Translations under genes and position numbers: made by a program
Shown here: one piece after another, positions 1,547-55,660 of the stretch
How the letters are laid out: every line of letters begins with the position of its first letter
Numbering within the stretch: position 1 is the first letter of the stretch
Notes under the pieces: generated by a model
Told to the model about the DNA's origin: nothing
Seen by the model: the letters and a program-made list of their open reading frames with translations, nothing else
The model's database searches: none
Virus record (IMG/VR): IMGVR_UViG_3300031998_000083
Span: 556-64,555 of that record
Reading direction: 5' to 3' (one strand)
Length of the DNA stretch: 64,000 nt
Source of the DNA: a virus
Lineage: Duplodnaviria; Caudoviricetes

Positions 1547-1586
1547 CAAAATTAAGGGATAAAAAGGTCGGTTCTTTCATATAATT
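1547..1586 (-). promoter_or_regulatory. Late-class promoter for the head/tail-fibre operon
   Basis: AATTATATGAAAGA (1586-1573), 18-nt gap, TAATTTTG (1554-1547). Confidence 0.8.
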
Positions 1587-1618
1587 TCTTCACTCCTGCG
1601 AATTTGCGCAACGGACGG

Positions 1619-1658
1619 AATTTTATGAAAAGATGACCGCCTGCAAGGCTTATCTTTG
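1619..1658 (+). promoter_or_regulatory. Late-class promoter for the portal operon
   Basis: AATTTTATGAAAAG (1619-1632, 11/14 match), 18-nt gap, TATCTTTG (1651-1658). Confidence 0.75.
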
Positions 1659-1680
1659 CACGAAAAAGAATAAGGTATAT

Positions 1681-3720
1681 ATGACAAAGCCCGTAAAGCC
1701 CGTGAAGCCGCTGCTTACCCTCGATGATGTCCGTCCGCTGCAGAAGGGCAGCCGGCGCGATACCGTCATGGAGCGCCGGAAGAATAATCTCCAGGAAGGG
1801 AAGTACGACCAGGCGCTGCTTGCCGAGTGCGCGCGCTCATGGAACAATAAGGACAATTTCCGTCAGGAGCGCCACCGCGTACTGGAGATGATCTTCGGCA
1901 ACCAGTGGGGCGAGGTGATCCACGTCTACGGACAGGGTGACATGACCGAGGAAAAGTGGATACAGATGCAGGGCCTCACCCCGCTGAAGAACAATATCAT
2001 GATCTCGCTCTGGATGTCCGTCTTCGGCATCCACGCCAAACAGGAGACGGAGCCTGTCTGCTATGCGCGCAACCAGGCGGCAAAGGAACTGTCCGACAAC
2101 CTGTCCGCGGCCATACAGACCAACTGGCAGAGCCAGTACATGTCAGAGAAGCTTGATTCCGGATTCGCCGAATTTATCATCTCATCGGCTGCCTTTATTC
2201 GCAACACGTTTGAGGAGCGTAACGAGCTGTTCGACTCCTACAACGATTTGATGAATCCCGACGTCATGTTCTGGGAGGGCGGCAGCGACCCGACACATCA
2301 GGATATCCACATGATCGGCTGCCTGCATGATATGACGCCCGAAAACATCTACTTCCACTTCGCCAAGTCCGAGTACGGCCTGACCATCGACGACCTCGAT
2401 GAGATCTTCCATATCGGCGAGGTGGGCAACCTGAACCGTCAGACTTCCCAGCAGGTCAACGAGAAGCACAGCTACGAAAACCTGAGCTTCTACCAGCCGT
2501 CCGACCTCGGCCTCTGCCGCGTCATCGAGGTGTGGCGCGAGGAGGTGAAGCCCCGCTACCAGTGTTTCGATCCGCTGGCCACCGATCAGATAGACAAGTA
2601 TTTCCGCTGCGAGAAGGAGGATCTGAAGTATGTCATCGACATCAACCGCCAGCGCAAGGCACTGTATGAGGAGCAGGGTGTACCCGTAGAGCAGCATGCC
2701 TATATCACGGCACGGGAGATCGTGGATAAGTACTGGCAGTATTACTTCATGGCTCCCGACGGACGGATCCTCTGTGAGGGAGAGTCGCCCTACGACTATA
2801 AGAGCCATCCCTTCACCATGTCGCTCTTCCCCTACGTCAACGGTGAGATCCATTCCTTCATGGGCAGCTTTATCGACCAGCAGAAGTATATCAACCGCAT
2901 GGTGATGATCAACGACTACGCCATCCGTACCTCGGCAAAGGGTATGACGTTCCTGCCACTGTCGCTGAAGCCGGAGGGCATGAGCATTGAGGACTACGCC
3001 AGGCAGAAATCTCGATTTGATGCCGTGTTCGTATATGATGACACCAAGCGGCAGACGGGTGCCAAGCCTGAGTTCTATACCCATTCGGCATTCAATACCG
3101 GTGCCAACGATATGCTGCAGATACAGCTCAACATGATCCACGATGTGTCGGGCGTGTCGGGCGCCCTCCAGGGCAAGACGCCCGCCAGCGGCACGGCTGC
3201 CTCTCGCTACGCCATGGAGGCGAATAACGCCACCACCACCATCTACCCGCTGATCAAGAAGTTCAACGGCTTCGAGGAGCGCGTCGCCATGAAGACGCTG
3301 ATCACGCTCCAGCAGTTCTACGAGGAGGGCCGCGACATCACGCCTAAGAAGTCCGACAAACAGGTGTTCTACCGTGCCAACGCCTGCCGTAACGTCAAGG
3401 CGAACATCTCCATCAAGAACTCAGCGGCCTCAGCTGCCTTCTACCAGATGGGTAACGATGTGCTTAACATGCTCTGGGAGGGTAAGGCCATCGACGTGCG
3501 TACCTACCTGAAGAATCTCGATGCCCCGTTTGCCGACAAGATCCTACAGGACATCGACAACTACCAGAATCAGGTAATGTCGGGACAGATGCCGTCCGCT
3601 CCCGTTCAGGTGCCAGGCGCAGACCAGCAGCAGGCACAGCTCGCCACGCAGCTCCTCAACGGCCCCGGACAGCTCTACACCCGAAATGCCCCCGACCAGC
3701 CATTCACCCTACAACAGTAA
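1681..3720 (+). CDS. Portal protein (P22/podovirus-like)
   Basis: ~680-aa ORF (open from 1633; 1681 fits the promoter) with portal-like features (G.QW, 'IDQQKYINR', 'SGVSGALQG', Q-rich C-terminus); followed by connector genes. Confidence 0.8.
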   Translation: MTKPVKPVKPLLTLDDVRPLQKGSRRDTVMERRKNNLQEGKYDQALLAECARSWNNKDNFRQERHRVLEMIFGNQWGEVIHVYGQGDMTEEKWIQMQGLTPLKNNIMISLWMSVFGIHAKQETEPVCYARNQAAKELSDNLSAAIQTNWQSQYMSEKLDSGFAEFIISSAAFIRNTFEERNELFDSYNDLMNPDVMFWEGGSDPTHQDIHMIGCLHDMTPENIYFHFAKSEYGLTIDDLDEIFHIGEVGNLNRQTSQQVNEKHSYENLSFYQPSDLGLCRVIEVWREEVKPRYQCFDPLATDQIDKYFRCEKEDLKYVIDINRQRKALYEEQGVPVEQHAYITAREIVDKYWQYYFMAPDGRILCEGESPYDYKSHPFTMSLFPYVNGEIHSFMGSFIDQQKYINRMVMINDYAIRTSAKGMTFLPLSLKPEGMSIEDYARQKSRFDAVFVYDDTKRQTGAKPEFYTHSAFNTGANDMLQIQLNMIHDVSGVSGALQGKTPASGTAASRYAMEANNATTTIYPLIKKFNGFEERVAMKTLITLQQFYEEGRDITPKKSDKQVFYRANACRNVKANISIKNSAASAAFYQMGNDVLNMLWEGKAIDVRTYLKNLDAPFADKILQDIDNYQNQVMSGQMPSAPVQVPGADQQQAQLATQLLNGPGQLYTRNAPDQPFTLQQ

Positions 3721-3726
3721 GCGACC

Positions 3727-4191
3727 ATGGTAAAGACATTCGACTATACGACACTCTACGGCAAGGTCTCCCGCTCCCTCTCCATCATCGGGAAGCGAAG
3801 CACCGACGACCAGGGCAACCGTCTCTTTGCTGACATCACCCTCGGGTCGCGCGAGACAGATATCATCGAGGACTATATGCGCCAGGCGGTCATCGACCTT
3901 GCAGCCGAGATGGAGGCTCTTGTCACGGGCGAGACCGACACAACCATCACCATCACGCTGCCGTCGAACCATAACAGCGCGCTGGAGACGTTCATCAGTA
4001 AGTCGTGCGACGAGTACTGCGTGTCCTACGCCCTCTACTCATGGTTTACCGTCACCGCCCCGCGTATTGCGGAAAAGTACCTTGGCGACATGAAGCGCCA
4101 GCTCTCTGCCGTCGTGCGCCTCATCAATGAGAGGAAGGCACCGACGGGATCCGCTGACATCGTATCATCCACATTGACTGTAATCACATAA
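3727..4191 (+). CDS. Head-tail connector/ring protein paralog 1
   Basis: 154 aa; motif CDEYCVSYALYSWF shared with the next three genes; follows the portal. Confidence 0.55.
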   Translation: MVKTFDYTTLYGKVSRSLSIIGKRSTDDQGNRLFADITLGSRETDIIEDYMRQAVIDLAAEMEALVTGETDTTITITLPSNHNSALETFISKSCDEYCVSYALYSWFTVTAPRIAEKYLGDMKRQLSAVVRLINERKAPTGSADIVSSTLTVIT

Positions 4192-4202
4192 TATATATAA
4201 AT

Positions 4203-4730
4203 ATGTCAAAGACTATCACGCTTAACCTCAACAAGGCGCTGATCTTCGAGGCCGTCAAGGCCGACTCGTTCGACACTGCACGCATAGAGAAGGTGGAGGA
4301 TCCCGTAAAGCTGGCCTCTGCCGTGGCCGCACAGCAGGGAGGCGAGGCCCATCAGGAGCGCCAGATGCTCCGTTACCTGAAGGCTGCCCTCGGGAAGTTC
4401 GAGGCACAGATGGCAGAGTTTGTCGACGTGGCCGACGGCTCCATCGAGGATACGCTCTCCTCATCATCCGACACGTTCACCGTCACCATGATCGTCAATG
4501 ACCGGTACAACGACGGGCTGGCTAATCCCATGTCCTCTCTCTGTGAGGACTACCTCGTCAACCAGATGCTCTACGACTGGTGGCGCAAGAGCAAGCCCGA
4601 GTATTCGAAGAACTTTGCCGTCGATGCCATGGATGCCGTCAGCCATATCCGGCTCTGCCTGACAAAGACGGCCCCCGAAGCATCGGACAGCGACTACACC
4701 GACGTCACCGGTACCGTGACGCAGAACTAA
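4203..4730 (+). CDS. Head-tail connector/ring protein paralog 2
   Basis: 175 aa; LCEDYLVNQMLYDWW motif. Confidence 0.55.
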   Translation: MSKTITLNLNKALIFEAVKADSFDTARIEKVEDPVKLASAVAAQQGGEAHQERQMLRYLKAALGKFEAQMAEFVDVADGSIEDTLSSSSDTFTVTMIVNDRYNDGLANPMSSLCEDYLVNQMLYDWWRKSKPEYSKNFAVDAMDAVSHIRLCLTKTAPEASDSDYTDVTGTVTQN

Positions 4731-6514: not shown

Positions 6515-6515
6515 T

Positions 6516-8777: not shown

Positions 8778-9264
8778 ACGCGAAACCTCCCAACAGACAG
8801 TAAAGGTGCAGGCACCAGTTTATGCTTGGTATGACCATGCCTATCAGCGCAAAGGGCACGGTCTTATAACAGAACTCCCATATCTTCTCGCGCATGATAT
8901 CGTCGCCTGCAGGCCAGAAGCTCTGGCAGCAGACGCCCCACTTTGCGCCCCAAATGGCGAATATCACGCCAGAGAATCCCATCGTCACCCCGTCCATCGG
9001 CCATAACGGCCCCACGACGGGAAGGAATGTCGCCACGAAGGCGATCACCGCCGAGGCGAAGATATACAGGCGCCGCTTCATGATCCACAGCACGAACAGG
9101 TTGCCCGCCAGGTGCCACACGTTAGCATGGCTGACCATCGACAGCAGGTGATCCGCTGGCGACATGTCACCGCTGGCGTAGCCCGTCTGCCGTCCGAAGG
9201 CATACCAGGCCACCATCACAGCCGTCAGCACGGCCTTCTCTATCGTCAGCCTATGCCGTCTCAT
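8743..9264 (-). CDS. Rhomboid-family intramembrane serine protease
   Basis: HANVWHLAGN (HxxxxHxxxN), GFSG (catalytic Ser) and LHLYCLLGG (catalytic His) within hydrophobic helices. Confidence 0.85.
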   Translation of the reverse strand: MRRHRLTIEKAVLTAVMVAWYAFGRQTGYASGDMSPADHLLSMVSHANVWHLAGNLFVLWIMKRRLYIFASAVIAFVATFLPVVGPLWPMDGVTMGFSGVIFAIWGAKWGVCCQSFWPAGDDIMREKIWEFCYKTVPFALIGMVIPSINWCLHLYCLLGGFAYGRWRWKHFLK

Positions 9265-9727
9265 ACTCCACCATGCTTGCCGTTTTCCTTGCCGCTGCCC
9301 TGCGGATCGTGTCTACCTTCACGCGCTTCACCGTCTTCTCGCGCCATATCTGCCCCATGCGGTCCGTGTCGATGTAGAACCGCGGGGCAGGCTCCTGAAT
9401 GGCATGGCGTACCAGCTCATAGAGCGAGCTGTACCAGAACTTCTCGGTCTGCTTCAGCCTCAGCACGGTGTCGAGCAGGTCGTAGTACATCTGCTGCATC
9501 AGCGGACTCATCTTCTCCAGCCTGCTGTGGTCGCCTCGGGTCATCGGCGATATCACCTGCAGCGCCCATCGGGCGTCGATATAGTATCTCGGTGCCTGGT
9601 GCTTGACGGTCAGCTCGTAGGCCTCCGTCTGTGTCCGGCAGCTGTACTGCCCCACGATCTCACGGTACACCCGCATGAGGTCGTTCTTCATCTCCTCCTT
9701 GTGGTTTGTCTTGCATTTCATTGTCAC
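9251..9727 (-). CDS. Conserved phage protein with duplicated (P)APR(Y/F)YID motif
   Basis: Internal duplication QAPRYYID / PAPRFYID; overlaps the rhomboid start; SD-like AAGGAGG before two candidate ATGs. Confidence 0.7.
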   Translation of the reverse strand: MTMKCKTNHKEEMKNDLMRVYREIVGQYSCRTQTEAYELTVKHQAPRYYIDARWALQVISPMTRGDHSRLEKMSPLMQQMYYDLLDTVLRLKQTEKFWYSSLYELVRHAIQEPAPRFYIDTDRMGQIWREKTVKRVKVDTIRRAAARKTASMVEYETA

Positions 9728-9743: not shown

Positions 9744-12536
9744 TTATCTCATGTTGTCCCCTCTCCGCTCCTGGCTTGTAATGATCGTACCACTCAGCCG
9801 CTCCGTCGGCAGCATCTTGATATAGAGCGCCAGCCTGTAGTAGCGTGCGGCAGCACCGAAGCGCGACTCGTCCCTATACCATTTCCGCAGGTCGCTGGAT
9901 ACATACACTTGTGTCTTTACGCAACTCAGATTGTTACCATTGTTATCCTTCTCCTGCCACATGCCAACGTTCATCAGTTCCCGTAGAGACGCCTGGCTCA
10001 CAGGGCCTGCAAGCTTTAACGGGCGTGTCAGAACAAATGCCAGCTGACGGTTTCCGACCTCATCCTCGCGCAACTTCTCATAGAGTGAGAATACCTTTCT
10101 TACAGTCACTGTCTGAGGTTCCTCTCCTTCCTCTTGTATTATCTCAGTGGTATCACCCTGCAGAAAATAGTCCGGATAGTTGTTGACGGCATTCTTTATT
10201 GTTGCTGGCAGCACAGTCTTTGATATAGTCCCGTCCTGGATATTGTAGACAAAGGCAAAATCGTACAGGCTGTTATCAACCATGATGATTCGTTGGTCAA
10301 TATAGTCGTAAGCCATGACCAAGCCGTTTGAGCTTATGTATTTGAGGAAGTTCTCATCATCATAGCACGATCCTACTACGCCAGACCAGTCTGTGCCAGT
10401 TGTCAAGTTTGGCAACTTTTCCTTATAATCAAATATTGGACCGTTCATCTGCGCGCTCACACACTTCACGCTCTCACCGACAAGTACCATCAGGCCTTTC
10501 TTTGATACGAAGTATATGGCTCCGTCTGTCTCGATGATCGATGACGGGTTAATACACACTTCGCGCGAAAGCTCGTCAGACCGCTGATATACACCCTCGT
10601 TATCCAGTCGCAATGTGGAGATGCCCCTCTCCGAGAACACGACCAGCGGGTGTATGCCGTGTTCCTCCTGTCCGAGTGCCACCGTCTGCGAAGCCATGCC
10701 GAGGATCCTGCCCCTGCCAACCGTCACATGGCCTTTGGCCGTAAACACCCAGGGATTGTCAACCTCGCTGACGATTATCTTTCCCTCCAGCAGTTCAGGC
10801 GTGTTGTTCAGTGTCGGTGCTGTCGCCACGACACCGCTCGGCCATGCGCCGTAGGAGTCGGGCAGGTGGCCGAAGTAATAGGCACCGTTCAGATACGGGT
10901 GTTCCTTCAGTGCAAGCGTGTATATCCTGTTGGTTCCCACAAACACCTCTGCCTTGAATGCCCTCGGGTCGGGATAGTAAAACCAAATGTCGCCTATCTC
11001 ATACGAAGAGCCGTCCGTCACCGACACCACCTTTGTGCCGTCCTCCGTCCTGATGTGAACGTAGAATTTCCTGTTCTGGCTGTCGGTATGTGCCGTGTAT
11101 GAGAATTTCCCGAAGCCCCAGAAGATGCTGCGCTTCACGTCGGCCAGGTGAAGGCGGTTGTTGTATGCCTTGATCACCTGTGGCCTCATGTAGGAGTTAG
11201 AGAAGTAGTCGTCGTTCTTCAGCGTCTGGTTGTTCACGAGATTCTTCAGCGCTCCGCGGTCTATCTTGCTTGTGGCGTCCTTCTGTGAGGTGTCAAGCAT
11301 CTCGTTGAAGTCCAGCTCGATGATCTTATAGAACACCGATTTCTCCAGCAGCCTGTGTGTCATCTCCCCCTCACTCAGCAGCGACGGCTGGTAGAAGGTC
11401 TGCCAGGTATTTGCATCGTTATCTACGAATGCGGGCATGCTGGCCAGCACGCCATATTGCGGCATGCATGCGTCCACGGTGCCAAGCGTCGTCGTCATGC
11501 TGTTGGGCCTGACGCAGTTGTTGATGATATTCCAGCCGCCGTTCAGATCGAAGCTCTTCACCTCCTCCGAGACGAATATATCCACTCCGCTGATGATGTC
11601 CTCCCAGTCCGAGAGGTCCTGTGCCCCGTAGTTTGTGCTGTAATACAGCTTGGCACAGTAGGGCCGGTAGGCCGTTATCCAGTAGCCGCCAGCGTCACCG
11701 TCTATCACCTTCGGGCCGTCCGTCTCAGGATCATAGGCAAAGATGTGCCAGTTGTTCAGCACCGTCGGCAGCAGAAGGAAGGGATTCGAGATTCGCGCAT
11801 GGGTTCCGTCGTAGAGCCTGACGGCAGACCGCGCCCAGAACGGGAAGGCAAACCGCTTCTTCTCCTTCACCCAGTCCAGCTGCGCCGACACGATGCCGAC
11901 AAGCGCATCCTTTCCTATCTCGTAGCCGCTATCCCACTTCCTGTCGTTCTCTGTGTCTTCGCTACCCCATACGTTGCCGGCATATTCATCTATATAGCCA
12001 GGACGTGGTATTTTAAGCAATATCTCACCGTGCATGCCAGGCACACGTCCGTACTTGTTCGGGTTTGCGTCCGTACCGCTCAGATAGCCGAAGTCACCGA
12101 GTGAGAAATCGACTCTGATGTCAGGGATCTCAGCCCCGAGGTAATTGTATGTTCCTCCCTTCCAGAGGAAATATCCCATGCCTGACGAAGAGGCCACGAT
12201 CAGCGTGTTGCCAATCGACTGTATCTGCAACGTCGCCGCATTGACGGCCATCATGTGGTTGTAGGCTGCTTCGGAGCTTGTGTCAAGCGTCCAGTAGAGC
12301 GTCGAGTTGGTGACCTTCCTCAGAATGTACCGCGTCGTATCGTTGTGGCTGTGAACATACACCAGCAGATACCCGCTTACCACCGTCATCTTCTCCTTCG
12401 GCTGCACTATCGGCTTCAGCTCCTGGTTGTCGGTGGTCAGGTTGATGCACTCTGCCAGCTCTCCGTCCTTGCAGAGGAAGTCACTCGGCGTCCTGGTGAT
12501 TCCTGCCTGATAGGTGATACGCTTCTCCTCGTTCAT
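9744..12536 (-). CDS. Tail tubular B / nozzle (stabilisation) protein
   Basis: ~930 aa, beta-rich; start 'GITRTPSD...DGEL.ECINL', YNNRLHLA, GRILGM, EVCINP patterns resemble P22 gp10/T7 gp12-like proteins. Confidence 0.7.
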   Translation of the reverse strand: MNEEKRITYQAGITRTPSDFLCKDGELAECINLTTDNQELKPIVQPKEKMTVVSGYLLVYVHSHNDTTRYILRKVTNSTLYWTLDTSSEAAYNHMMAVNAATLQIQSIGNTLIVASSSGMGYFLWKGGTYNYLGAEIPDIRVDFSLGDFGYLSGTDANPNKYGRVPGMHGEILLKIPRPGYIDEYAGNVWGSEDTENDRKWDSGYEIGKDALVGIVSAQLDWVKEKKRFAFPFWARSAVRLYDGTHARISNPFLLLPTVLNNWHIFAYDPETDGPKVIDGDAGGYWITAYRPYCAKLYYSTNYGAQDLSDWEDIISGVDIFVSEEVKSFDLNGGWNIINNCVRPNSMTTTLGTVDACMPQYGVLASMPAFVDNDANTWQTFYQPSLLSEGEMTHRLLEKSVFYKIIELDFNEMLDTSQKDATSKIDRGALKNLVNNQTLKNDDYFSNSYMRPQVIKAYNNRLHLADVKRSIFWGFGKFSYTAHTDSQNRKFYVHIRTEDGTKVVSVTDGSSYEIGDIWFYYPDPRAFKAEVFVGTNRIYTLALKEHPYLNGAYYFGHLPDSYGAWPSGVVATAPTLNNTPELLEGKIIVSEVDNPWVFTAKGHVTVGRGRILGMASQTVALGQEEHGIHPLVVFSERGISTLRLDNEGVYQRSDELSREVCINPSSIIETDGAIYFVSKKGLMVLVGESVKCVSAQMNGPIFDYKEKLPNLTTGTDWSGVVGSCYDDENFLKYISSNGLVMAYDYIDQRIIMVDNSLYDFAFVYNIQDGTISKTVLPATIKNAVNNYPDYFLQGDTTEIIQEEGEEPQTVTVRKVFSLYEKLREDEVGNRQLAFVLTRPLKLAGPVSQASLRELMNVGMWQEKDNNGNNLSCVKTQVYVSSDLRKWYRDESRFGAAARYYRLALYIKMLPTERLSGTIITSQERRGDNMR

Positions 12537-12560
12537 AGAAATAATAGTTTTATCTGGCGG

Positions 12561-12568
12561 CAAAGATA
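12561..12568 (-). promoter_or_regulatory. Bacteroidota -7 promoter element for the nozzle-rhomboid-terL operon
   Basis: TATCTTTG on the minus strand; only ATTAT of the late upstream box is present at the N18 position. Confidence 0.6.
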
Positions 12569-12747
12569 ACCATTAAAACAACACAATTATGTTAATAATC
12601 TATAAACATAGGAATTATCCGCACTTATCTGCACCAGTGGCTACCACTGCCGACGGCTGCCAATGTTGGCGGTTCCGGATGCCGTAACTTTGCACTCGGT
12701 TAGGGAAACGCCCTTTCCGCTATTTATTCACTTAACACAAAAACATT

Positions 12748-33454: not shown

Positions 33455-33494
33455 CAAAGTTACGCAGAAATAGGCTTGTGTCTTTCATATAATT
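33455..33494 (-). promoter_or_regulatory. Late-class promoter for the ejection operon
   Basis: AATTATATGAAAGA (33494-33481), 18-nt gap, TAACTTTG (33462-33455). Confidence 0.85.
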
Positions 33495-35165: not shown

Positions 35166-35214
35166 ATATGAATGAATAATGTGTTACTGGGTGCAAAGAT
35201 ACAAATTTTTTAAT

Positions 35215-35470: not shown

Positions 35471-35472
35471 CT

Positions 35473-35590
35473 AAAAAAGCAGAGCCAACCGACTCTGCCC
35501 GTAACTACTTAACTTGCGCTGCATGCCTCACGGCAAAACACAAACTTCATTCATTCATTTCGAAAATTAGATGTACGTTCAAAATATCGG
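35473..35590 (-). ncRNA. Candidate sRNA beside attP
   Basis: TACCTTTG (35601-35594), no convincing ORF, terminator GCAGAG...CTCTGC followed by T6. Confidence 0.45.
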
Positions 35591-35675
35591 CTGCAAAGGT
35601 AGCCATTTATCCGAAACAAAAGTGTTAATATAACATAATATACCGCCAAACGCCCTGTGTGCGCTCCCGTAGCAA

Positions 35676-35715
35676 AATTATATGAAAGACACAAAGCTTA
35701 TTCCTCGTAACTTTG
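35676..35715 (+). promoter_or_regulatory. Late-class promoter for the lysis cassette
   Basis: AATTATATGAAAGA (35676-35689), 18-nt gap, TAACTTTG (35708-35715). Confidence 0.85.
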
Positions 35716-35739
35716 CCAAAAATATAATAAAGTATATCA

Positions 35740-36231
35740 ATGGAAGAGTTAAGAACTGTCGTCGTGACCGTTATCGGTGCTATCCTGACAATGCTGGCAC
35801 CCATACAGAATTTCATGTACGCCATGGTGCTGCTGTTTTCGCTCAACTTCATCTTCGGCATCGTGGCGGCGAGAGTCAACAAGGAGGGATGGAAGACAAA
35901 GAAGGCCCTCATGTTTTTTGTTTACTGCGCTATTTTCTTCGTAACGGCCTGTGCAGTATTCATCATCGGCCACTTTATGGGGGAACACCAGCAGGCCATC
36001 ACCGTCGTTAAGATCCTATGCTATCTGGCCGTCTATGTGTTCGGCACAAACATCTTCCGGAACCTGTGCCAGATCGTACCGCAAAACTCAACCTGGTACA
36101 AGCTCTTCGACCTCTGCTATTACATGTTGTCGGTGAAGTTCATCGAGAAGTTCCCGTTCATCAAGAAACGTCAGGAAGATCTTGCAGGCGCCAGTTCGCA
36201 CAATACCATTCTCGACAAGGACGATAACTGA
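35740..36231 (+). CDS. Holin
   Basis: Multi-TM 163-aa protein directly before the endolysin. Confidence 0.75.
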   Translation: MEELRTVVVTVIGAILTMLAPIQNFMYAMVLLFSLNFIFGIVAARVNKEGWKTKKALMFFVYCAIFFVTACAVFIIGHFMGEHQQAITVVKILCYLAVYVFGTNIFRNLCQIVPQNSTWYKLFDLCYYMLSVKFIEKFPFIKKRQEDLAGASSHNTILDKDDN

Positions 36232-36232
36232 T

Positions 36233-36700
36233 ATGAGGCGTATTGACAGGATCTTCGTACATTGCACGGCTTCGTGGCAGGAGACGACCACCGAGGAAAG
36301 CCTGCGGGCAGAGTTCAGGAAGAACGGCTGGCGCAATCCTGGCTACCATTATGTAGTGAAACCCGACGGTAACATCATCGAGATGCTGGCCGAGAACAGG
36401 GTGGCCAACGGTGTGAAGAACTACAATCAGAACAGCATCCACGTCGCATGGATCGGCGGACTGATAAAAGCTGGCGGCAAGATCCTCCCGTGCGACAATC
36501 GCAAGCCTCAGCAGAAGCAGGCGCTCTTCGACCTGCTGACCAAGCTGAAGCTGAAATATCGCAACGCCATCATCCTCGGACACCGCGATATCTCGCCCGA
36601 CCTGAACCATAATGGCATCGTGGATCCATGGGAGCGTATCAAGCAGTGTCCCTGCTTCGACGCGATGGTGGAATATATGGACATCAACAAAATAGGATAG
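36233..36700 (+). CDS. Endolysin, N-acetylmuramoyl-L-alanine amidase (amidase_2/T7 type)
   Basis: IFVHCTA, GYHYVV, GHRD and K.CPCFD zinc-amidase motifs. Confidence 0.93.
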   Translation: MRRIDRIFVHCTASWQETTTEESLRAEFRKNGWRNPGYHYVVKPDGNIIEMLAENRVANGVKNYNQNSIHVAWIGGLIKAGGKILPCDNRKPQQKQALFDLLTKLKLKYRNAIILGHRDISPDLNHNGIVDPWERIKQCPCFDAMVEYMDINKIG

Positions 36701-36703
36701 CTT

Positions 36704-37309
36704 ATGTCACCACAACAGCTGTTTGGATATTACCAGAGGCAGGTCACCGACCGAAGCGGATGCGGCGGTCCTGTGATCTTCATGTGTCTGTTGATTGCAT
36801 TCTTTCTTGTGGGATGCAGGACGATTACCAACGAGGAGACCAATACGGAGAGTCACCGCATAGAAAGCCTGGTGGATAAAGTGGACAGCCTCATCAGCAA
36901 GACTGCCACCGTGAAGCAGGATTCCGTCTGGCGCGAGACCATCATCAAGGAGCTGCAGAGCATCCGCGAGAAGAGCGACACCAGCCACACCATCGTCGTC
37001 GACACAGCCGGCAAGGTCATCAAGGAGACGATCGTCATCAACAATACCAGGGAGGTGACCAGCGAGAGCGACCGTCAGGAGATTGTCGGCATGATCCACC
37101 GTCTGGAAAAGCTCGACTCTACCCTATCCGTACAGAACACTCAGATCAGCAAGCTCGACTCGCTCCTGAAGGAGAAGACCAAAGAGACCACCATCGAGAA
37201 GAAACAGCCGTGGAAATCGTTTACTCAGCATGTAAAAGGTATCATCATAGGGATCCTGTTAAGCGTAATAGCGTTCCTTGTTCTTCGCTTGAAGAAGCTC
37301 CTGCCGTGA
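36704..37309 (+). CDS. Probable unimolecular spanin
   Basis: Lipobox FLVGC, coiled coil and C-terminal TM helix; last gene of the lysis cassette. Confidence 0.65.
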   Translation: MSPQQLFGYYQRQVTDRSGCGGPVIFMCLLIAFFLVGCRTITNEETNTESHRIESLVDKVDSLISKTATVKQDSVWRETIIKELQSIREKSDTSHTIVVDTAGKVIKETIVINNTREVTSESDRQEIVGMIHRLEKLDSTLSVQNTQISKLDSLLKEKTKETTIEKKQPWKSFTQHVKGIIIGILLSVIAFLVLRLKKLLP

Positions 37310-43814: not shown

Positions 43815-45059
43815 TTAGTCGTTAATAAACATCGGCATGAGCAGCATTGTAATCTCCTCGTTGTCCGGCTGGGGCTGAGGCTGTATGATGACAGCGCGTG
43901 ACTGATCCTGATACAGGAATAACACTTTTTCCGTTGAGAGGGCCTTTAGTGTCTGCGACACAGCCACTACATTCATGCCGATGCGCAGACTGATGGAGGA
44001 ACAACCGTCGAATGGTTCGCATTCGCAGGGAAGCGCCTCGTCACCGGCCACCTCGAAGTCGGCATTTTCCGATTTGAGTTTCAATGTGGTCTTGTCGATC
44101 CTCATCTCCACTAAGTTAGACCGGTTAGTGAAGAAGGATAGGCGGCCACAGGACTTGATAAGAGCCTTGCGGTCAACAGTCATCTTGAATACATGGGATT
44201 CGGGAATGACACTCCAGTACGTCGGGTATTTCCCTTCAATGGGATTGAAGGAGATCGTGAGCGTATCGTCGATGACGATGCGGCACTGGGGCTTGCGCAC
44301 AGTAGACAGGTACTTCTCCTCACGGCCGTCGAGGTTTGTACGGGTATACTCCTTCATCAGTTCCTTCTGGTACTCCACATCGACATCGCCGGTGGATGGC
44401 AGCACCTTCAGGAGCGTCTTCACGACGGCGTAGGGGATAATGAACGACGTGCCTACGAAAAGATCTCCATAATTGACAGGATTCTTGCGCACACGCACCA
44501 ACTTGTGGCCGTCGGAAGAGACGTAGTCCGAGAACTGGTCCGTAAGGTTGACATAGACGCCGTTCATGACAGGCCTCAGCTCGTCCTGTGCCATAGCAAA
44601 GCTGCAGCGACTAAGGACGGATTTCAGGCAGGGAGCCTCGTACTCCAGCAGCCAGCCGTCGTCAGCCTTGACGTCGGGAGCCGGTGCCTTGAAGTCGAAG
44701 AACTCCGAGGCGTTCTGGTAGAGGGGCAGGCGGAAAGAACCGATGGAGTGATGCACGACGACCTGATACTCCAGCACCTCGAAGCGCAGGGGCTGTTCGT
44801 CGAGGGACTTCAGGGGATTGATAATGTCAGAGTAGTAGATTGCGATAGGCCGTGGCTCAACAGGATGCCCGTCGAGTGCTACCTTCTCTTCCATCCATAC
44901 ATAGCCGTTGGAGGCGTGGACTGTCATCAGCCCTTTCTCTTCATCGAAGGAGAACACAAAGTGCTTGAACACCTGTATCTCCTGCTTGGTAATGGCACAG
45001 CGGACGTGTTGTAATGCCCGCAGTAAACTGTTGCGTGATACGATAAATTCCATATTCAT
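43815..45059 (-). CDS. dnaN: DNA polymerase III beta sliding clamp homolog
   Basis: 'FAMAQDELRPVMNGVY', 'VSSDGHKL', 'IEGKYPTYWSVIP', 'LLMPM' C-terminus. Confidence 0.9.
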   Translation of the reverse strand: MNMEFIVSRNSLLRALQHVRCAITKQEIQVFKHFVFSFDEEKGLMTVHASNGYVWMEEKVALDGHPVEPRPIAIYYSDIINPLKSLDEQPLRFEVLEYQVVVHHSIGSFRLPLYQNASEFFDFKAPAPDVKADDGWLLEYEAPCLKSVLSRCSFAMAQDELRPVMNGVYVNLTDQFSDYVSSDGHKLVRVRKNPVNYGDLFVGTSFIIPYAVVKTLLKVLPSTGDVDVEYQKELMKEYTRTNLDGREEKYLSTVRKPQCRIVIDDTLTISFNPIEGKYPTYWSVIPESHVFKMTVDRKALIKSCGRLSFFTNRSNLVEMRIDKTTLKLKSENADFEVAGDEALPCECEPFDGCSSISLRIGMNVVAVSQTLKALSTEKVLFLYQDQSRAVIIQPQPQPDNEEITMLLMPMFIND

Positions 45060-45066
45060 TCTTGTT

Positions 45067-45282
45067 TTATTGTTCCTGCTGCTCGTCAAAATTTAAGCTT
45101 AAGTTGCGTGGGGGGGGGTAAAGCTCGATCTTCGGATTGGTGTAGGCACTCTTCCTGTGATTGTGGTAGCCGTACTTCAGCTTGACGTCCCTCGCCATCT
45201 GGAGGGAGAGCGGAGGCGTCACCACCTCGCGCTGTCCCGTCAGACGGTTACGGGCTGTGATACAGAACTTCGGACTGCTCAT
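45067..45282 (-). CDS. Small hypothetical protein
   Basis: 'ITARNRLTGQREVVT' phage motif. Confidence 0.6.
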   Translation of the reverse strand: MSSPKFCITARNRLTGQREVVTPPLSLQMARDVKLKYGYHNHRKSAYTNPKIELYPPPRNLSLNFDEQQEQ

Positions 45283-45512
45283 ACCGTATGCTTAACAAAT
45301 TGAGACTTCAGCATCTTATCCTTCAGGTCGTAGTCCTTGTGGTGGACCCAGTAGGCCTCGCCCGTCGGATCACCGTTATCGTCGAGCGGCTGGAGCTTCA
45401 TGCGACCCATACGGTCAAACTCCTGTACGATGCAGAAGTCGGACTTCACCAGGGATGTCTGGTCTGTGACGTACATCCCGATCTGCAGTTTCAAATATTC
45501 CTTGCCTGTCAT
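45279..45512 (-). CDS. Small hypothetical protein
   Basis: GAAGGAGG upstream; coupled. Confidence 0.6.
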   Translation of the reverse strand: MTGKEYLKLQIGMYVTDQTSLVKSDFCIVQEFDRMGRMKLQPLDDNGDPTGEAYWVHHKDYDLKDKMLKSQFVKHTV

Positions 45513-45976
45513 TTCTTATCCTCCTTCTTTGATGAAACATACTCAAACACGTCCATGATGTTCGTCTCGCTGACGGAGCTGATGACGTAATCGATCATCG
45601 TGCCACCCATCACCTCGTCGATGTTCTTACGGGCGCCCTCGAAGGATCCTGCCTGAACAAGATACGTCACCTTGGTCTTCTTCTCCTTATTGGTCTTCTC
45701 GTCGATGGTGATAAACTGGAGCTTGGCCTTGTACCACTTGTCGGCCATCTCGTCGTCGGAGAAGAATATCTCCTTGAACGGAGCGCGGTCGATCTCCACC
45801 ACGTCATACTCTCCACTGATGTAGCTGGCCATCTCGTCGATGATACGCTCCTCGGCCTCGCTGAAGCTCAGGGCATCCACTACATACTGTTCCTTCACTT
45901 TTTTCTGCAGGCCATCCTCCATCACCTTCTCATAGCGGATGTCACAGATAAACCAGTCTGCTGTCCTACTTCTCAT
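45509..45976 (-). CDS. DUF4494-family protein
   Basis: 'WFICDIRYEK...YVVDALSFSEAEERI...WYKAKLQFITIDEK...YLVQA'. Confidence 0.85.
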   Translation of the reverse strand: MRSRTADWFICDIRYEKVMEDGLQKKVKEQYVVDALSFSEAEERIIDEMASYISGEYDVVEIDRAPFKEIFFSDDEMADKWYKAKLQFITIDEKTNKEKKTKVTYLVQAGSFEGARKNIDEVMGGTMIDYVISSVSETNIMDVFEYVSSKKEDKK

Positions 45977-51158: not shown

Positions 51159-52121
51159 ATGAATAAAAAAGATCGATTTAACAAGGCATACAATTTCTTG
51201 AAATACGAAGGTGTTATCAAGAAACAGAGTGACGTTGCCAAAGCAATGAAAGCGTCGCAGTCGAATGTATCAAGTGCATTAAATGGAAAGGAGTCCGTCC
51301 TTACAGACAACTTCTTGATGCGCTTCTCTAGCGCTTTCAAGCAGATATCGCTAGACTGGCTTCTCAATGAGCAAGGACCGATGACAACGATCGTTCCGGA
51401 GTTCAAGGACGAGAATAAGCCTCAGATACTGGAAGGCAATGCTGACAAGGATGTGATAGCCGAGCAGTTTAAGATGACCGAGCGTATCAGGGAGCTGATC
51501 CATGAGACGGGCCATCTGCCTAAGACGTTCGCGCTAGAGGCAAACATCGAGGTAAACAACTTCCTCCGTAAGATGAAGGGAGAGTATGTGTGGTCGGTGG
51601 CCGACGTACATAAGATCTGCGACAACTTCCGAGTGCGAAAGAGCTGGCTTGTGGACGGTGAGGGGCAGAAATACCGGCTGCCCGACGAGGTGCTGGAGAC
51701 CATGCCTGCCCGTCGCTCCTACGACAAGAACGTAGGCATACCGTATTATAATGTGGACTTTGCTATGGGGTTTGATCCTGGCGTCAACGACCAGACGATC
51801 AATCCGCAGTACATGATAGACTTCGCCCCTTACAACCGTGCCGACTGCTGGTGTAATGCCAGCGGCGACTCCATGGCGCCAACGATAGCCAACGGCGATC
51901 TGATAGCCATCAAGGAGGTGCGCGACCCGTCATCATGCCTCATCAACGACGAGATCTACGCCATTGTCACCACCAACGACCTGCGAACCATCAAGCGCGT
52001 CCGCGACAATGGCGATACGGTGACGCTCATTCCTGACAATAAGGAATACTCCGAGCAGACCATCAGCAAGGAGCTGATCCTGAAGGTCTATAAGGTGATG
52101 GGGAGCATGAAGATGTTTTAA
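51159..52121 (+). CDS. CI-like repressor: two XRE HTH domains + S24 peptidase
   Basis: HTH1 ending LDWLLNEQG, HTH2 ending SWLVDGEG; S24 motifs SGDSMAP and TIKRV. Confidence 0.88.
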   Translation: MNKKDRFNKAYNFLKYEGVIKKQSDVAKAMKASQSNVSSALNGKESVLTDNFLMRFSSAFKQISLDWLLNEQGPMTTIVPEFKDENKPQILEGNADKDVIAEQFKMTERIRELIHETGHLPKTFALEANIEVNNFLRKMKGEYVWSVADVHKICDNFRVRKSWLVDGEGQKYRLPDEVLETMPARRSYDKNVGIPYYNVDFAMGFDPGVNDQTINPQYMIDFAPYNRADCWCNASGDSMAPTIANGDLIAIKEVRDPSSCLINDEIYAIVTTNDLRTIKRVRDNGDTVTLIPDNKEYSEQTISKELILKVYKVMGSMKMF

Positions 52122-52528
52122 GGCTTCTCCATACCGCAACAGGGGCAGACGATCCGACGGATAGCTGGGGCCATGCGCTGGCCGAGGAATCCCTGCAGGT
52201 ATGCCGGAGGCTCCCCGTAGTTCATCACGTCGTAGGCAGCCGTAATCTCATCCACTATATGCTTCGTCTCGTGCATGACGGTGTTGAAGAACTCCCCCCA
52301 GTTCCATGCACGCCCTATCAGCGTGATGCTCCTGCGTCGCGCTGGGTTACTCCACGTATAGCCGCGGTTCCACTCCTGCGTCATCAGGTGCCAGGTCTTC
52401 CCGATGTCCTCCTGCGGGCAGCCCAGCCTCACCATGGCCTCAGCCACGGCAGGCATGTCCTGTTCCAGCGGCACGTAGATCACCGTCGCCAGCCAGTACC
52501 CGTCGATATCGATTGTCTGCCAGATCAC
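52118..52528 (-). CDS. HExxH metallopeptidase-like protein
   Basis: VMHETKH followed by GEPPAYL.G. Confidence 0.7.
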   Translation of the reverse strand: MIWQTIDIDGYWLATVIYVPLEQDMPAVAEAMVRLGCPQEDIGKTWHLMTQEWNRGYTWSNPARRRSITLIGRAWNWGEFFNTVMHETKHIVDEITAAYDVMNYGEPPAYLQGFLGQRMAPAIRRIVCPCCGMEKP

Positions 52529-52932
52529 GCCATTTCCTCCCAGGGCACTTCCACCTTCTTACCTATGCAGTCGGCCAGCCATCGGCAGAAGGCGATGCCG
52601 TCGTAGCCGTCGGGATCGTCCAGCACGTCCTTGACATACTTTGCCAGGTGGTCCATGTCGGGCACGCTGTCGCCGAGGTAGTCGGCCAGTCCCATGTTGG
52701 CCACGAACACATGGTCGTGTCCCTTCAGGTTCTTGATCTCCACCTTCGAGTCCTTCAGCAGCCGCTCCACCTCCTGTTTTGTCAGCGCTTTGATGGGCCT
52801 GCCGTCCTCGCCCTGCATGCGGCTGACGGCAAACTCGCACAGGGCTGCGCTGAAGTGGCAGCCGTGTCTCCGCTTGTACTCCCTGAGTCCTTCCGGTGTC
52901 AGGTCGAGTATTGTCATGATGTCTTCGTACAT
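52525..52932 (-). CDS. Conserved phage protein of unknown function
   Basis: 'HGCHFSAALCEFAVSRM...ANMGLADYLG...DDPDGYDG...WLAD'. Confidence 0.75.
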   Translation of the reverse strand: MYEDIMTILDLTPEGLREYKRRHGCHFSAALCEFAVSRMQGEDGRPIKALTKQEVERLLKDSKVEIKNLKGHDHVFVANMGLADYLGDSVPDMDHLAKYVKDVLDDPDGYDGIAFCRWLADCIGKKVEVPWEEMA

Positions 52933-53010
52933 ATTTCAGCTTGTAATTCGTACATATTTCAGATAGGAAAATCAAAGGGGCGAGGCTCCTCTCCCCGCCC
53001 CTCCTGTAGT

Positions 53011-53466
53011 CTACATGCCTTGCATGTGCTGTCTAAGCTCCTGCATCTGGCGGTCAAGCTCCTGGAGCTTCTGCTCGTTCTTCTTTCGGAGTTCCTCGCG
53101 CTCCTCCCAGGTGCCCTCGTTACGATGCCATGCCCGGCCTCCACGACGGAAGTAGCTGCCGCCCCTCTCGTCCATGTCGCCACGGTAGCCTCCGCGGCCA
53201 TAGCCAGAGCCGCCGCCGTCCATACCTGAACCGCTGCGGTAGCTTCCGCTGCCTCCCTCACGGCTGATGCCGCTCAGGGCGTCCACGAACTGGTCGCCGT
53301 AGTCCTTCAGCTCGTCGGCCATCTGCTCGATCTCGGGGCCGCATCCGTCGCTGATCTCGTCGATGAAGTCGCGCAGCTTCTTCTTCACCTCGCGGGCCGA
53401 CAGCTTGCGTGTCTTGATGATCATTACGTTCTCGCTCATGTCTCTTGCGTTTTTAGTGGAGATCAC
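53011..53466 (-). CDS. Gly/Arg-rich small protein
   Basis: Helix, RGG-rich linker, coiled coil. Confidence 0.65.
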   Translation of the reverse strand: MISTKNARDMSENVMIIKTRKLSAREVKKKLRDFIDEISDGCGPEIEQMADELKDYGDQFVDALSGISREGGSGSYRSGSGMDGGGSGYGRGGYRGDMDERGGSYFRRGGRAWHRNEGTWEEREELRKKNEQKLQELDRQMQELRQHMQGM

Positions 53467-53990
53467 GGTCTCTTCTTCAGCAGCTCCAGTATCTCCTGTT
53501 GCGACTGCTGGATCTGTGCCGTCTGCTCCTTCAGCTCCCCGTACTGGGTCTTCAGGTTCTCGATGGTCTGGTCGCGCTCCTGGTCCTGTGCATACTTGCG
53601 GTTAAGCTGCTTGCGGATCGCGTCGTAGTCCTTGCGGGCGCTCTCATGCCAAGGGGTCTTGGCGATATGCTCCGCACTGGCCTTGTCGAGGTTGGCGACC
53701 TCCGTATCCATCAGTTCCGGACTCTCGGTGATGATCGTCGAGCCTCCGCGGTCCACTGCGCCTGTCGCGGGCACGTTGCGGAAAGTCCGCTGTCCTGTAG
53801 GTGTGGTCACGATGATATCCACCACCATCTCATGCTGCTGCCCGAAGGCGATTGACGCCAGCACCTGGTTAGGCTGCGCGTCCCTTGGTCTCGGCTGGCT
53901 CACGCTCTCCACCACTCCGTCCGTCACCGTCACATGGTCGCCCATGTCGAGAATGGTCAGATGGGCACCTTTAGCTAAATTTGAAAACAT
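53463..53990 (-). CDS. Conserved phage protein with C-terminal coiled coil
   Basis: 'MFSNLAKG..L.ILD' start; coupled. Confidence 0.75.
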   Translation of the reverse strand: MFSNLAKGAHLTILDMGDHVTVTDGVVESVSQPRPRDAQPNQVLASIAFGQQHEMVVDIIVTTPTGQRTFRNVPATGAVDRGGSTIITESPELMDTEVANLDKASAEHIAKTPWHESARKDYDAIRKQLNRKYAQDQERDQTIENLKTQYGELKEQTAQIQQSQQEILELLKKRP

Positions 53991-54073
53991 AATCTCCTGT
54001 TGTTTTTGTTACCTTTTTGATGAACTCTCTCAGAAAGGCCAGCAGGCGGCGGCAGTACCACCGCCAGCCGGTC

Positions 54074-55057
54074 CTATTTTGCTGCCGGGGTCTCGGTTGT
54101 CGCGCCCGTGCCGGTAGTGCCGTTGGTGTAGCCAAGCAGGCGTGCCACGAGCAGCGTGCCGATGAAGTCGCTGCCGATGGTTGCGATGCCTGTCGGTACG
54201 GCCTGGTACTGGTTGTTGGGCAGGGTGATCGTGGGAGGCTGGCAGCGCTTGATGGCCTCAACCTCTGAGTAGATGGCGTTCAGGCGGGCATCCGTCTGTG
54301 CCTGGCTCTGTCCGACGAGACCAGCAATGTACTGGTTCTGCTTCATCTGCGAGATCTCACCGTCCTTGGCAAGTGCGAGTGCGGTCAGCTCCTGGATCTT
54401 CGCGTTCTTGTCCTCGAGCTTGTCGTTGTACATCTGCTGGAGGATGGCGCGGTAGCCCTCGGTCTGGTTGTCCACGATGCGCTGGGTGTTCTCGTTGCCT
54501 GCGTTGATCAGGGCGTTGGTCTGCTGGCACATGGCCAGTGCCTGGTCCTTGCAGCAGTTGCAGAACTGGAGGGCGATGTCGCTCTGTCCCTTCTGGAGGG
54601 CCATCTGCAGCTGCATCACGCTCATGTTGTTCTGGGCTGCAAGCTGCACCATGGCGAGGTTGATGTTGGCAAGACCAGCCTGGATGGCGTCGGTGGAGGT
54701 ATTGAAGGCCTGTGCCAGCTCCACTACGCGGTTGCCTACGCCGGTGACATGCTCCATCAGTAGGTCGTTGCCGTGGTTGTTGTTCGCCATGTTGGCCAGG
54801 TAGGCCGTGGCTGCCGCGTCGCTGCCGCCACCACCGAAACCTCCGAAGCCGTTGCCGTAGCCGAACATGTTGGCCACGATGCCAAGGCCGAAGAGGCCGA
54901 GAACGCCGTCCCACATGCCGTTACCGCCGAAGATGCCTCCGTTGTTGCCCTTGTTCTGGTTGCCCATCACGGCAGCGAAGTCGGCAGGACTCCATCCGCT
55001 GCGGCCACCGAAACCGCCTTCAGAGGATCCCAAACTGATAATTTTCTCTTCTGTCAT
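54074..55057 (-). CDS. Gly-rich membrane-segment / CxCC coiled-coil phage protein
   Basis: GG-rich region plus TM segment, 'QFCNCCKDQ', Q/N-rich helices. Confidence 0.8.
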   Translation of the reverse strand: MTEEKIISLGSSEGGFGGRSGWSPADFAAVMGNQNKGNNGGIFGGNGMWDGVLGLFGLGIVANMFGYGNGFGGFGGGGSDAAATAYLANMANNNHGNDLLMEHVTGVGNRVVELAQAFNTSTDAIQAGLANINLAMVQLAAQNNMSVMQLQMALQKGQSDIALQFCNCCKDQALAMCQQTNALINAGNENTQRIVDNQTEGYRAILQQMYNDKLEDKNAKIQELTALALAKDGEISQMKQNQYIAGLVGQSQAQTDARLNAIYSEVEAIKRCQPPTITLPNNQYQAVPTGIATIGSDFIGTLLVARLLGYTNGTTGTGATTETPAAK

Positions 55058-55125
55058 TTTCTTGAAATTTGAGTAGTTGATAATAAGATGTTAATTCTCT
55101 CGGGTGTCATTGGCCTTTGACACCG

Positions 55126-55168
55126 CAAAGATACCTAATTCTCCCTAATCACCCTAATAATCCCTACT
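55126..55168 (-). promoter_or_regulatory. Promoter with upstream CCCTAAT direct repeats
   Basis: TATCTTTG (55133-55126); CCTAAT/CCCTAAT at 55134, 55143 and 55152, CCCTAC at 55162. Confidence 0.55.
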
Positions 55169-55179
55169 CTACCCACTGC

Positions 55180-55413
55180 TCAAAACGTGCAGTCCATGAT
55201 CATCTTCCCGATGATCTTATATATCTTTCTCTCGCAAATACCGTACTTTTCGGAAAGATGTGCTATAATGTAGGTGGTCTTGTGACCCATGCCCTTCATC
55301 ATGTCAAACTCCTCTGTCATCGGCAAATGCTGGTAATAATCCATGCCGATGCCGCGTTCGTGCAGCAATTTCATGATCTCTTTGCCAATTTTTATTAATT
55401 CTTTCACTTTCAT
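55180..55413 (-). CDS. 77-aa protein with C-terminal HTH
   Basis: 'IIAHLSEKYGICERKIYKII'; start MKVKEL. Confidence 0.75.
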   Translation of the reverse strand: MKVKELIKIGKEIMKLLHERGIGMDYYQHLPMTEEFDMMKGMGHKTTYIIAHLSEKYGICERKIYKIIGKMIMDCTF

Positions 55414-55461
55414 TAGTGCAAAATGTTGGTTGATTAATATATTTTTCCTACCTTTGCACCC

Positions 55462-55590
55462 GCACCACCATACATCAGCCATAGCCTCACCTGCAGAGAA
55501 CGGGCAACTGTCCCCCGATCCGCTGCTGGTGAGGCAATGTGTAATAAGTTGGTGGTGCTTCTTATTATTGGGTCGGGGGATTTTTCTATT
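55462..55590 (+). ncRNA. Candidate pseudoknotted ncRNA
   Basis: TACCTTTG promoter (55449-56); three long complementary pairs; U-tract. Confidence 0.6.
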
Positions 55591-55620
55591 CTTTTTGGCC
55601 TCATCTCCCCGACTCCGCTG

Positions 55621-55660
55621 CAAAGATACAGCGTTTCTCCTGTCACTCTTTCATATAATT
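55621..55660 (-). promoter_or_regulatory. Late-class promoter
   Basis: AATTATATGAAAGA (55660-55647), 18-nt gap, TATCTTTG (55628-55621). Confidence 0.85.

Follow-up and report, generated by a model that had tools for sequence, protein, structure and literature searches.

The sequence analyzed here, a stretch of 64,000 nucleotides (nt) hereafter called the window, covers bases 556-64555 of IMGVR_UViG_3300031998_000083, a single IMG/VR virus record of 64,555 bp. The subject of this work is a 14-nt box, AATTATATGAAAGA, which precedes five promoters in the window (P1 to P5). Gene content marks the virus as a temperate podovirus-like phage, and its host is a rumen Prevotella-type bacterium; prophage relatives were found in metagenome-assembled genomes (MAGs) of Prevotellaceae, and phage DNA is present in sequencing runs labelled bovine gut metagenome.

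Exact copies of the 14-mer lie at 1586-1573 (-), 33494-33481 (-), 35676-35689 (+), and 55660-55647 (-), and an 11/14 copy lies at 1619-1632 (+); no further exact copy was found in the entire 64,555-bp record. P1 consists of an exact box (1573..1586, -) and, 18 nt after it, the -7 element TAATTTTG (1547..1554, -). It heads the capsid/tail operon (-), which begins with genes for proteins of 143 amino acids (aa; 1528-1097) and 265 aa (1071-274) and continues with the 614-aa SU10-type major capsid gene (SU10_MCP), whose open reading frame (ORF) is cut by the record ends and runs from 101 (-) across to 62709, the SU10 adaptor gene (62094-61411), and fibre-like genes to 55760. P5 diverges from P1 and comprises the 11/14 copy AATTTTATGAAAAG (1619..1632, +) and the -7 element TATCTTTG (1651..1658, +), followed by the portal gene (1681-3720, +; Pfam P22_portal, 1.2e-20) and five genes to 6514. 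P2 (box at 33481..33494, -; -7 element TAACTTTG at 33455..33462, -) precedes the ejection operon (-), comprising a T7 gp14-like internal protein gene (to 32690; T7_gp14 match of 4.5e-4, weak and below the cut-off), a 255-aa gene (32679-31912), and the gene of a giant 5216-aa protein (31906-16256, -). P3 (box at 35676..35689, +; -7 element TAACTTTG at 35708..35715, +) precedes the lysis cassette (+), with a holin-like gene (35740-36231; E 4e-4, below the cut-off), an amidase gene (36182-36700; Amidase_2, 2.6e-17), and a gene at 36704-37309. P4 (box at 55647..55660, -; -7 element TATCTTTG at 55621..55628, -) precedes a structured leader of ~190 nt, the gene of a 77-aa helix-turn-helix (HTH) protein, and a five-gene block (55057-52118, -). 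The labels given to these operons in the original prediction, namely capsid, ejection, lysis, five-gene, and portal, hold by gene content.

The association of box and promoter is real and far beyond chance. When up to three mismatches were allowed, the 14-mer had 15 matches compared with a mean of 4.58 in shuffles, and none of 100 shuffles reached 15. The window contains 51 TAnnTTTG sites, five of which (1554-, 1651+, 33462-, 35708+, and 55628-) carry the box exactly 18 nt upstream (N18), the other 46 being without it. When TAnnTTTG sites were paired by agreement of their upstream 14-mers at 11/14 or more positions, there were 10 pairs at offsets of 18-20 nt and 0-1 at offsets of 0-12 and 24-60 nt and downstream. 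Both the coordinates of the four exact copies and the 11/14 copy and their constant 18-nt distance, as claimed in the original prediction, were recovered in this analysis.

The layout common to the five promoters is AATTWTRTGAAARR-N18-TAnnTTTG. The box is 14-19 bp long, asymmetric, and present in a single orientation relative to the -7 element, and the sequences flanking its five copies are unrelated. The -7 box is located at about -12 to -5, which would place the upstream box at about -44 to -31. The housekeeping promoter consensus of Bacteroidota, as given in PMC2483708, comprises -33 TTTG and -7 TAnnTTTG. All five box promoters resemble this consensus in having a perfect -7 element, but differ from it upstream, where none has TTTG or TTG ~19-21 nt before the -7 element and bases of the box, GAAA or AAAG, are found instead. 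Other promoters in the window (51017+, 14493+, and 14418-) do have TTTG or TTG at N19-20. Two further explanations of the layout were considered and rejected. An UP-element-like AT tract read by the polymerase alone does not agree with the location of the box over the -33 position, and distant clades use words that are not AT tracts. Lambda-type Q antitermination was rejected because the distance from the -7 box to the ATG, ~16-27 nt at P1, P2, P3, and P5, leaves no room for a terminator at these four of the five dispersed promoters, and only P4 has a hairpin leader.

A search with the portal protein brought 10 IMG/VR loci and four close Prevotellaceae prophages, with portal identities of 62-92%, in which the box is kept while its flanks have diverged. 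The P5 box is present in 14/14 of the relatives' portal promoters, and two divergent boxes are retained in every locus that covers the region upstream of the portal gene. Between phages, the box varies (TATG or TGTG), as do the bases just upstream of it, yet the divergent pair within one phage agrees even at these variable positions. In five IMG/VR relatives retrieved in full, the pattern RTGAAARR-N18-TANNTTTG had 14 matches and its reversed control none. The relatives' sites precede orthologues of the portal, capsid, ejection, lysis, and HTH blocks, with P2 having orthologous sites in G001, G002, G003, and G004, and P4 in G001 (as a variant), G002, G003, and L067. A relaxed box pattern gave 45 matches in 15 clade sources, 35 of them with TAnnTTT[GA] at N18, two at N17, and eight with none, and thereby 37 distinct promoters having both elements. 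In the same 15 sources, conservation continues beyond the box into the 5 nt that precede it, with A at -5 and purines at -3 to -1. The mean information content of the portal promoter of 14 phages was 1.46 bits in the box and 1.91 bits in the -7 box, compared with 0.57 bits in the spacer and 0.48 bits upstream. The motif search of related genomes that had been proposed with the original prediction found the box and its spacing kept at the same promoters. In IMG/VR as a whole, the exact composite pattern was found in four stretches only; two of them (L001 and L003) match P1 and P2 by downstream coding sequence, one (L004) precedes an ATG-started ORF, and one (L002) looked like chance.

These comparisons bear on the idea that the 14-mers have no regulatory meaning and are leftovers of a promoter cassette recently copied within the genome. 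P2 and P3 are similar also in the spacer, as such an origin would predict; however, the flanks of the five copies are unrelated, the box has been kept at portal identities of 62-92% while flanks diverged, and distant clades, described below, repeat the layout with different words. The copied-cassette explanation is already contradicted by the comparative data, and we regard it as extremely improbable.

The motif was also sought in host genomes. In five host MAGs (~16 Mb), the composite pattern had 10 matches, eight on prophage contigs and two elsewhere, and the reversed control had two; the box alone had 12 matches in three MAGs, eight of them on prophage contigs. A sample of 201 genomes belonging to the same family as one of the host MAGs yielded two composite matches, each in a different genome, and no control match, against five in the phage by itself. 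The original prediction had named an equally common occurrence at host promoters as the outcome that would speak against it, and the search in the 201 family genomes contradicted this outcome; because the motif is nearly absent from the host-family genomes searched, it is not a host promoter class. It could nevertheless be supposed that a host factor, either an alternative holoenzyme or a regulator, reads the box and that the phage merely uses it, and in a few cases box types do follow host groups (the Prevotellaceae clade; B. salyersiae/B. koreensis; B. fragilis). The two matches in 201 host-family genomes and the concentration of the motif on prophage contigs in host MAGs argue against such a factor, as does the IMG/VR contig G211, which comes from the same kind of sample and carries Prevotella-phage-like genes, yet uses another box. 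A host reader therefore seems very unlikely.

The closest deposited phages are the Bacteroides phages BS-TP4, BKO1-TP3, and BF1-TP2, whose portals are 33-35% identical to that of the window and which share with it the giant protein, a rhomboid protein, the terminase, DUF4494, and a gene of the APRFY family, named after a repeated sequence motif. In BS-TP4 and BKO1-TP3, GTAAAAAGATAAAC-type boxes end ~18 nt before TAnnTTTG; those of BS-TP4 precede the portal gene, the capsid operon, and the lysis-region operon, and BKO1-TP3 has a box before the ejection operon as well, where the -7 box is imperfect. In BF1-TP2, the word is GATTTTTATYGTTAT-N18 and precedes gp71, the portal gene, and the ejection and capsid operons, with a -7 box that is weak at the portal gene and matches at 7/8 positions at the capsid operon. 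In G211, whose portal is 40% identical, boxes of the TCAAATACGG type head the portal and 939-aa genes and the capsid operon. The boxes of these distant clades are unrelated in sequence to the window box but lie at the same distance and head equivalent operons; therefore, the architecture appears to be family-wide and the word private to each lineage. In BF1-TP2 (L063/L064), two box promoters at record positions 60997-61056 face each other and overlap, each box lying downstream of the other's predicted start.

The original prediction had listed a site at ~12561-12568 (window 12530-12610, -) as a degenerate sixth member of the class; instead, it carries a conserved word of its own, TTAACA-N21-TAnnTTTG, common to G001, G002, and G003. 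This promoter heads the operon of the 939-aa, APRFY, rhomboid, and terminase genes and may belong to a promoter class of its own ("middle"), of which each genome would have a single copy.

In our view, the virion, ejection, and lysis operons are likely driven by a promoter class that is private to the phage and has the 14-mer as its upstream recognition element. The intact -7 element would be read by host RNA polymerase carrying the primary sigma factor, but the normal -33 contact would be impossible, leaving the box promoters weak or silent in the lysogen. A phage DNA-binding protein made earlier would then bind the box at about -44 to -31 and, positioned in fixed register with sigma at -7, would supply the missing upstream contact, either by class-II activation or as an adaptor resembling that of sigma appropriation; T4 middle and Mu late promoters offer parallels. 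Box and factor would form a pair peculiar to each phage lineage. The original prediction had described the box as the site of a phage activator or of a modified host RNA polymerase that defines the late regulon. The part of it that concerns a phage-specific promoter class replacing the -33 TTTG stands after the comparative and host tests, while late timing was taken from gene content, the only basis of the label "late".

Several observations weigh against this interpretation. All 10 sequencing runs listed as holding the phage (window 1-6000) are DNA metagenomes and none is an RNA run, so start sites, timing, and activator dependence are all inferred. The perfect -7 element might allow basal transcription independent of an activator, and the terminase operon, normally a late one, uses a different promoter. 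The boxes of the distant clades are represented by only 3-4 sites each, and the -7 box is imperfect at one site of BF1-TP2 and one of BKO1-TP3. In addition, no protein could be tied to the box: scans of the candidate factors against Pfam, PHROGs, and NCBIfam gave nothing useful, and residues fixed between TATG-box and TGTG-box phages numbered 0-5 per protein, not exceeding control partitions.

The search for a reader began from known classes of transcription factors. Six-frame translations of the record had no match to Sigma70_r2 or Sigma70_r4_2 at E<=10, with controls detected, and neither a sigma nor a Q-type protein was matched by Pfam or PHROGs among ~60 ORFs scanned, in agreement with the earlier statement that no sigma or Q-like gene is evident. 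MotA and AsiA families were likewise not found among the ORFs scanned with Pfam, PHROGs, and NCBIfam, a few small ORFs lying outside the scan. These results concern a further explanation, according to which a very divergent phage sigma-like protein replaces the host sigma, its melting part reading the host-like -7 element and its C-terminal part reading the box as a -35-like element. In favour of it, a -35-type element would be expected to show the strict spacing (35/37 at N18) and the asymmetry of the box, and the SU10-type capsid and adaptor genes form a module also present in phiEco32 and 7-11. The late promoters of phiEco32-like phages are phage-specific and occupy equivalent places in the genome, and their sigma factors are only ~15% alike (PMC8948821). 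In contrast, no sigma70 domain was matched in the six frames at E<=10 and no sigma family among the ORFs scanned with the three collections, the -7 element matches the host consensus in full, while a phage sigma factor usually comes with a -10 of its own, and a box of 14-19 bp is longer than a -35 element. We regard a divergent sigma factor as unlikely.

Other readers were sought among DNA-binding and conserved proteins of the phage. Sequence and profile searches of PDB with the HTH, DUF4494, and APRFY families gave chance-level matches only; in the ESM Atlas, the APRFY protein led to unnamed phage clusters and DUF4494 to a sub-threshold DUF1543 lead (0.81). Three candidates had been named in the original prediction: an HTH protein encoded at 38067, the 77-aa HTH protein encoded at 55180..55413 (-), and the protein with duplicated APRFY motifs encoded at 9251..9727 (-). 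The first is disfavoured, since a homologue is present in only one of five relatives (1/5), all of which use the box.

The 77-aa protein may be a regulator of the late region. Its family comprises 611 clusters at E<=1e-3, and its best assignment, judging from profile comparisons, is a remote Mor-type HTH. Its own match to Pfam Mor is below the cut-off (E 0.024; 15.1 bits vs 24.9), but 28/101 family members match Pfam Mor at E<=0.01 (best 9.1e-5), hhalign gave a probability of 72-74% for Mu Mor over 23-24 columns and 9.8% for Mu C, and one source names a homologue "Mor family". Together with the genes at 54074, 53463, 52525, and 52118, the HTH gene travels as a module through many otherwise unrelated IMG/VR phages, in most of which it follows a tail gene and has no box promoter; one member of the module (52118-55413) is DUF7841. 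The HTH of G211 has the same recognition helix as that of the window, yet the portal/capsid box of this contig is different; conversely, the G002 protein has a very different recognition helix and the same box core as G001. BS-TP4 lacks the protein. Because of the module's travel, the G002 helix, and the mismatch in G211, the 77-aa HTH is probably not the reader, and we give this assignment a rather low likelihood.

The leader of this gene (~190 nt; 55413-55628, -) contains a hairpin at 55572-55615, and a host-type promoter, TACCTTTG, at 55449-55456 (+) is directed antisense into it. The leader matches no Rfam family. Leader and antisense promoter are kept in 12/12 HTH loci examined, most of them without P4, which suggests that the 77-aa HTH is a tightly controlled regulator. 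TTAGGG-like repeats (55134-55175, -) lie directly upstream of a -7 box at 55133 that heads the five-gene block.

The third candidate, the 158-aa APRFY protein, is basic (isoelectric point, pI, 9.5) and has an internal YEL..APR(Y/F)YID repeat, which is weak (z = 3.2); identity within the family falls to 25-35% between clades. Among the genomes compared in full (the window, BS-TP4, and BF1-TP2), this family and DUF4494 are the only non-structural families in common. A box with the right spacing never precedes the APRFY gene. Its place in the window clade is after the 939-aa gene, under the TTAACA-N21 promoter. In BS-TP4, BKO1-TP3, and BF1-TP2, the APRFY gene diverges from the capsid promoter, and the box, inverted, overlaps the gene's own promoter; in G211, 9 nt separate a degenerate copy of the box from the -7 box of the APRFY gene. 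These arrangements would fit a self-regulated activator made before the late genes. As judged from gene order, the location beside the rhomboid and terminase genes would fit a small terminase subunit equally well. The APRFY protein is therefore still a candidate, but one whose position also suits another role; that it is the reader is possible though doubtful, and the same modest standing is given to a protein of the early operon that was not recognised as a regulator.

The inverted and mis-spaced boxes are also relevant to the idea that the box is an operator for negative control. Promoters with only a -7 element would then be intrinsically active, and a phage protein bound over -33 would shut them until late in infection. 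The box overlaps a region that RNA polymerase must touch, the -7 boxes are perfect, and both geometries near the APRFY gene, that is, the inverted box over its promoter in the three Bacteroides phages and the 9-nt copy in G211, look repressive. However, a single orientation combined with an exact N18 register is the usual mark of activation or recruitment and not of occlusion, and the absence of a -33 TTG from all five promoters is consistent with a need for an activator. The obvious repressor was examined separately: the box is retained in G002, G004, and G005, all without a homologue of the phage's CI-like repressor, so that the box is not the operator of this protein, and a CI-type operator was rejected. 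Negative control through the box is improbable in our assessment.

DUF4494 (45509..45976, -) is an acidic protein (pI 4.7) and can be named only as a speculative co-factor candidate. It is 50-55% identical to its Bacteroides-phage homologues, although the portals are only 33-35% identical, and it is the best-conserved non-structural protein of the phage group. Returning to activation through the box, a more elaborate and tentative version, which we find somewhat less credible than the APRFY assignment by itself, would make the fast-evolving APRFY protein, with its two APR(F/Y)Y repeats, the substitute for the sigma/-33 contact. It would act in a modular late switch of Bacteroidales podovirus-like temperate phages that carry rhomboid and terminase genes, a giant ejected protein, and an SU10-type capsid, with orthogonal box/reader pairs, the highly conserved acidic DUF4494 as the polymerase-binding partner, and the APRFY gene regulating itself via inverted or mis-spaced boxes. 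Bacteroidota phages would then have an equivalent of sigma appropriation, but one assembled from unrelated proteins.

Concerning the remaining genome, the record ends overlap by 103 bp (identity 102/103), which indicates a circular or terminally redundant genome of ~64.45 kb; IMG/VR nevertheless classes the record as linear and 81% complete. Its G+C content is 52%. The phage also encodes a protein with a weak terminase match, a rhomboid protease, a tyrosine integrase, a Rha/KilAC antirepressor, the CI-like HTH/S24 repressor, and, in a long leftward early operon, an O/DnaD-like initiator, VRR-NUC, DUF6948, DUF4494, and a beta clamp. The DnaN-type sliding clamp gene (43815-45089) is common to only 1/5 relatives. 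The last gene of the P1 operon (55760-57547) encodes BspA-type leucine-rich repeats, a Listeria-Bacteroides repeat, and a dockerin-like end; its product has no homologue among the five relatives compared and is probably the receptor-binding protein. Beside the integrase gene, repeats of TTTGTAGCGCAT (35211-35250 and 35450-35470) are probably arm-type recombinase sites or the attachment region. No Rfam family was found in the window at gathering scores, and the region 33000-37000 had two short weak DNA matches only to deposited phages.

Several phage systems resemble the box promoters in part. In T4, the MotA box lies near -30. T4 middle promoters combine a MotA box with a sigma-70 -10 element and depend on the activator MotA and the co-activator AsiA in a process termed "sigma appropriation" (PMC6755090 and PMC2988021). 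In both cases, the host downstream element is kept and the upstream one is replaced by an asymmetric, phage-only box at a fixed distance (here N18 in 35/37 clade promoters and N17 in two), and the box marks a class of phage promoters read by host RNA polymerase, a class that is temporal in T4 and would be so here. The differences are that no MotA/AsiA homologue was found here in the family scans, that the box is longer (14-19 bp), that the geometry is the -33/-7 of Bacteroidota, and that the regulon comprises virion and lysis genes of a temperate podovirus-like phage.

In phage Mu, the sites of Mor and C are dyad-symmetric and extend from -51 to -33. Middle and late promoters of Mu use these two activators (PMC4287176 and PMC4461284). 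As in the window, Mu has several dispersed late promoters (lys, I, P, and mom) without a usable upstream element that need a small phage HTH activator, and the window encodes a 77-aa protein with a Mor-type HTH. Unlike the Mu sites, the box described here is not a dyad; the 77-aa protein is without the N-terminal half of Mor and is below the Pfam cut-off, and this HTH and the box do not go together (G211; BS-TP4). We conclude that the box promoters most likely work like T4 middle or Mu late promoters, yet would belong to neither family.

Late promoters of phiEco32 and 7-11 are read by phage sigma factors (PMC8948821). These phages share with the window the SU10-type capsid and adaptor and lineage-specific late promoters at equivalent genome positions; in contrast, their promoters are wholly phage-specific, including the -10, and a sigma factor is encoded, whereas the window phage retains the host -7 element and yielded no match to a sigma domain. 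The crAss-like phage phi14:2 and its relatives have tripartite middle promoters, according to a preprint (bioRxiv 10.1101/2020.03.07.982082). As described there, phi14:2 is likewise a Bacteroidota phage that expresses middle/late genes via host RNA polymerase with an extra conserved promoter block, and its motif recurs upstream of portal and structural genes in relatives. Two of its blocks, however, resemble -35/-10, and E. coli sigma-70 holoenzyme alone transcribes from these promoters in vitro, as stated in the same text. In the window phage, the upstream host element is replaced rather than supplemented, and the phage belongs to another family (temperate, with a P22-type portal and an SU10-type capsid).

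The literature searched, which excluded supplements such as the phi14:2 motif files and the tables of PMC12694917, describes neither this promoter class nor DUF4494 nor promoters of BS-TP4-type phages; the word "promoter" is absent from the paper on BS-TP4-type phages, and "motif" is absent from the preprint on Bacteroidales prophage induction. To our knowledge, almost nothing is known about late-gene timing in temperate phages of gut and rumen Bacteroidales. A late regulon that can be read from sequence would provide a direct handle on this question. An activator box in place of the -35 element is a classic principle, and the present case is a well-documented family-level example of it, not a new principle. 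Three cultured relatives with the same layout, BS-TP4 of B. salyersiae, BKO1-TP3 of B. koreensis, and BF1-TP2 of B. fragilis, could serve for testing it. The private boxes suggest orthogonal promoter/activator pairs for the engineering of Bacteroides and Prevotella, and the identity of the factor would show how an RNA polymerase with the unusual primary sigma of Bacteroidota is redirected.

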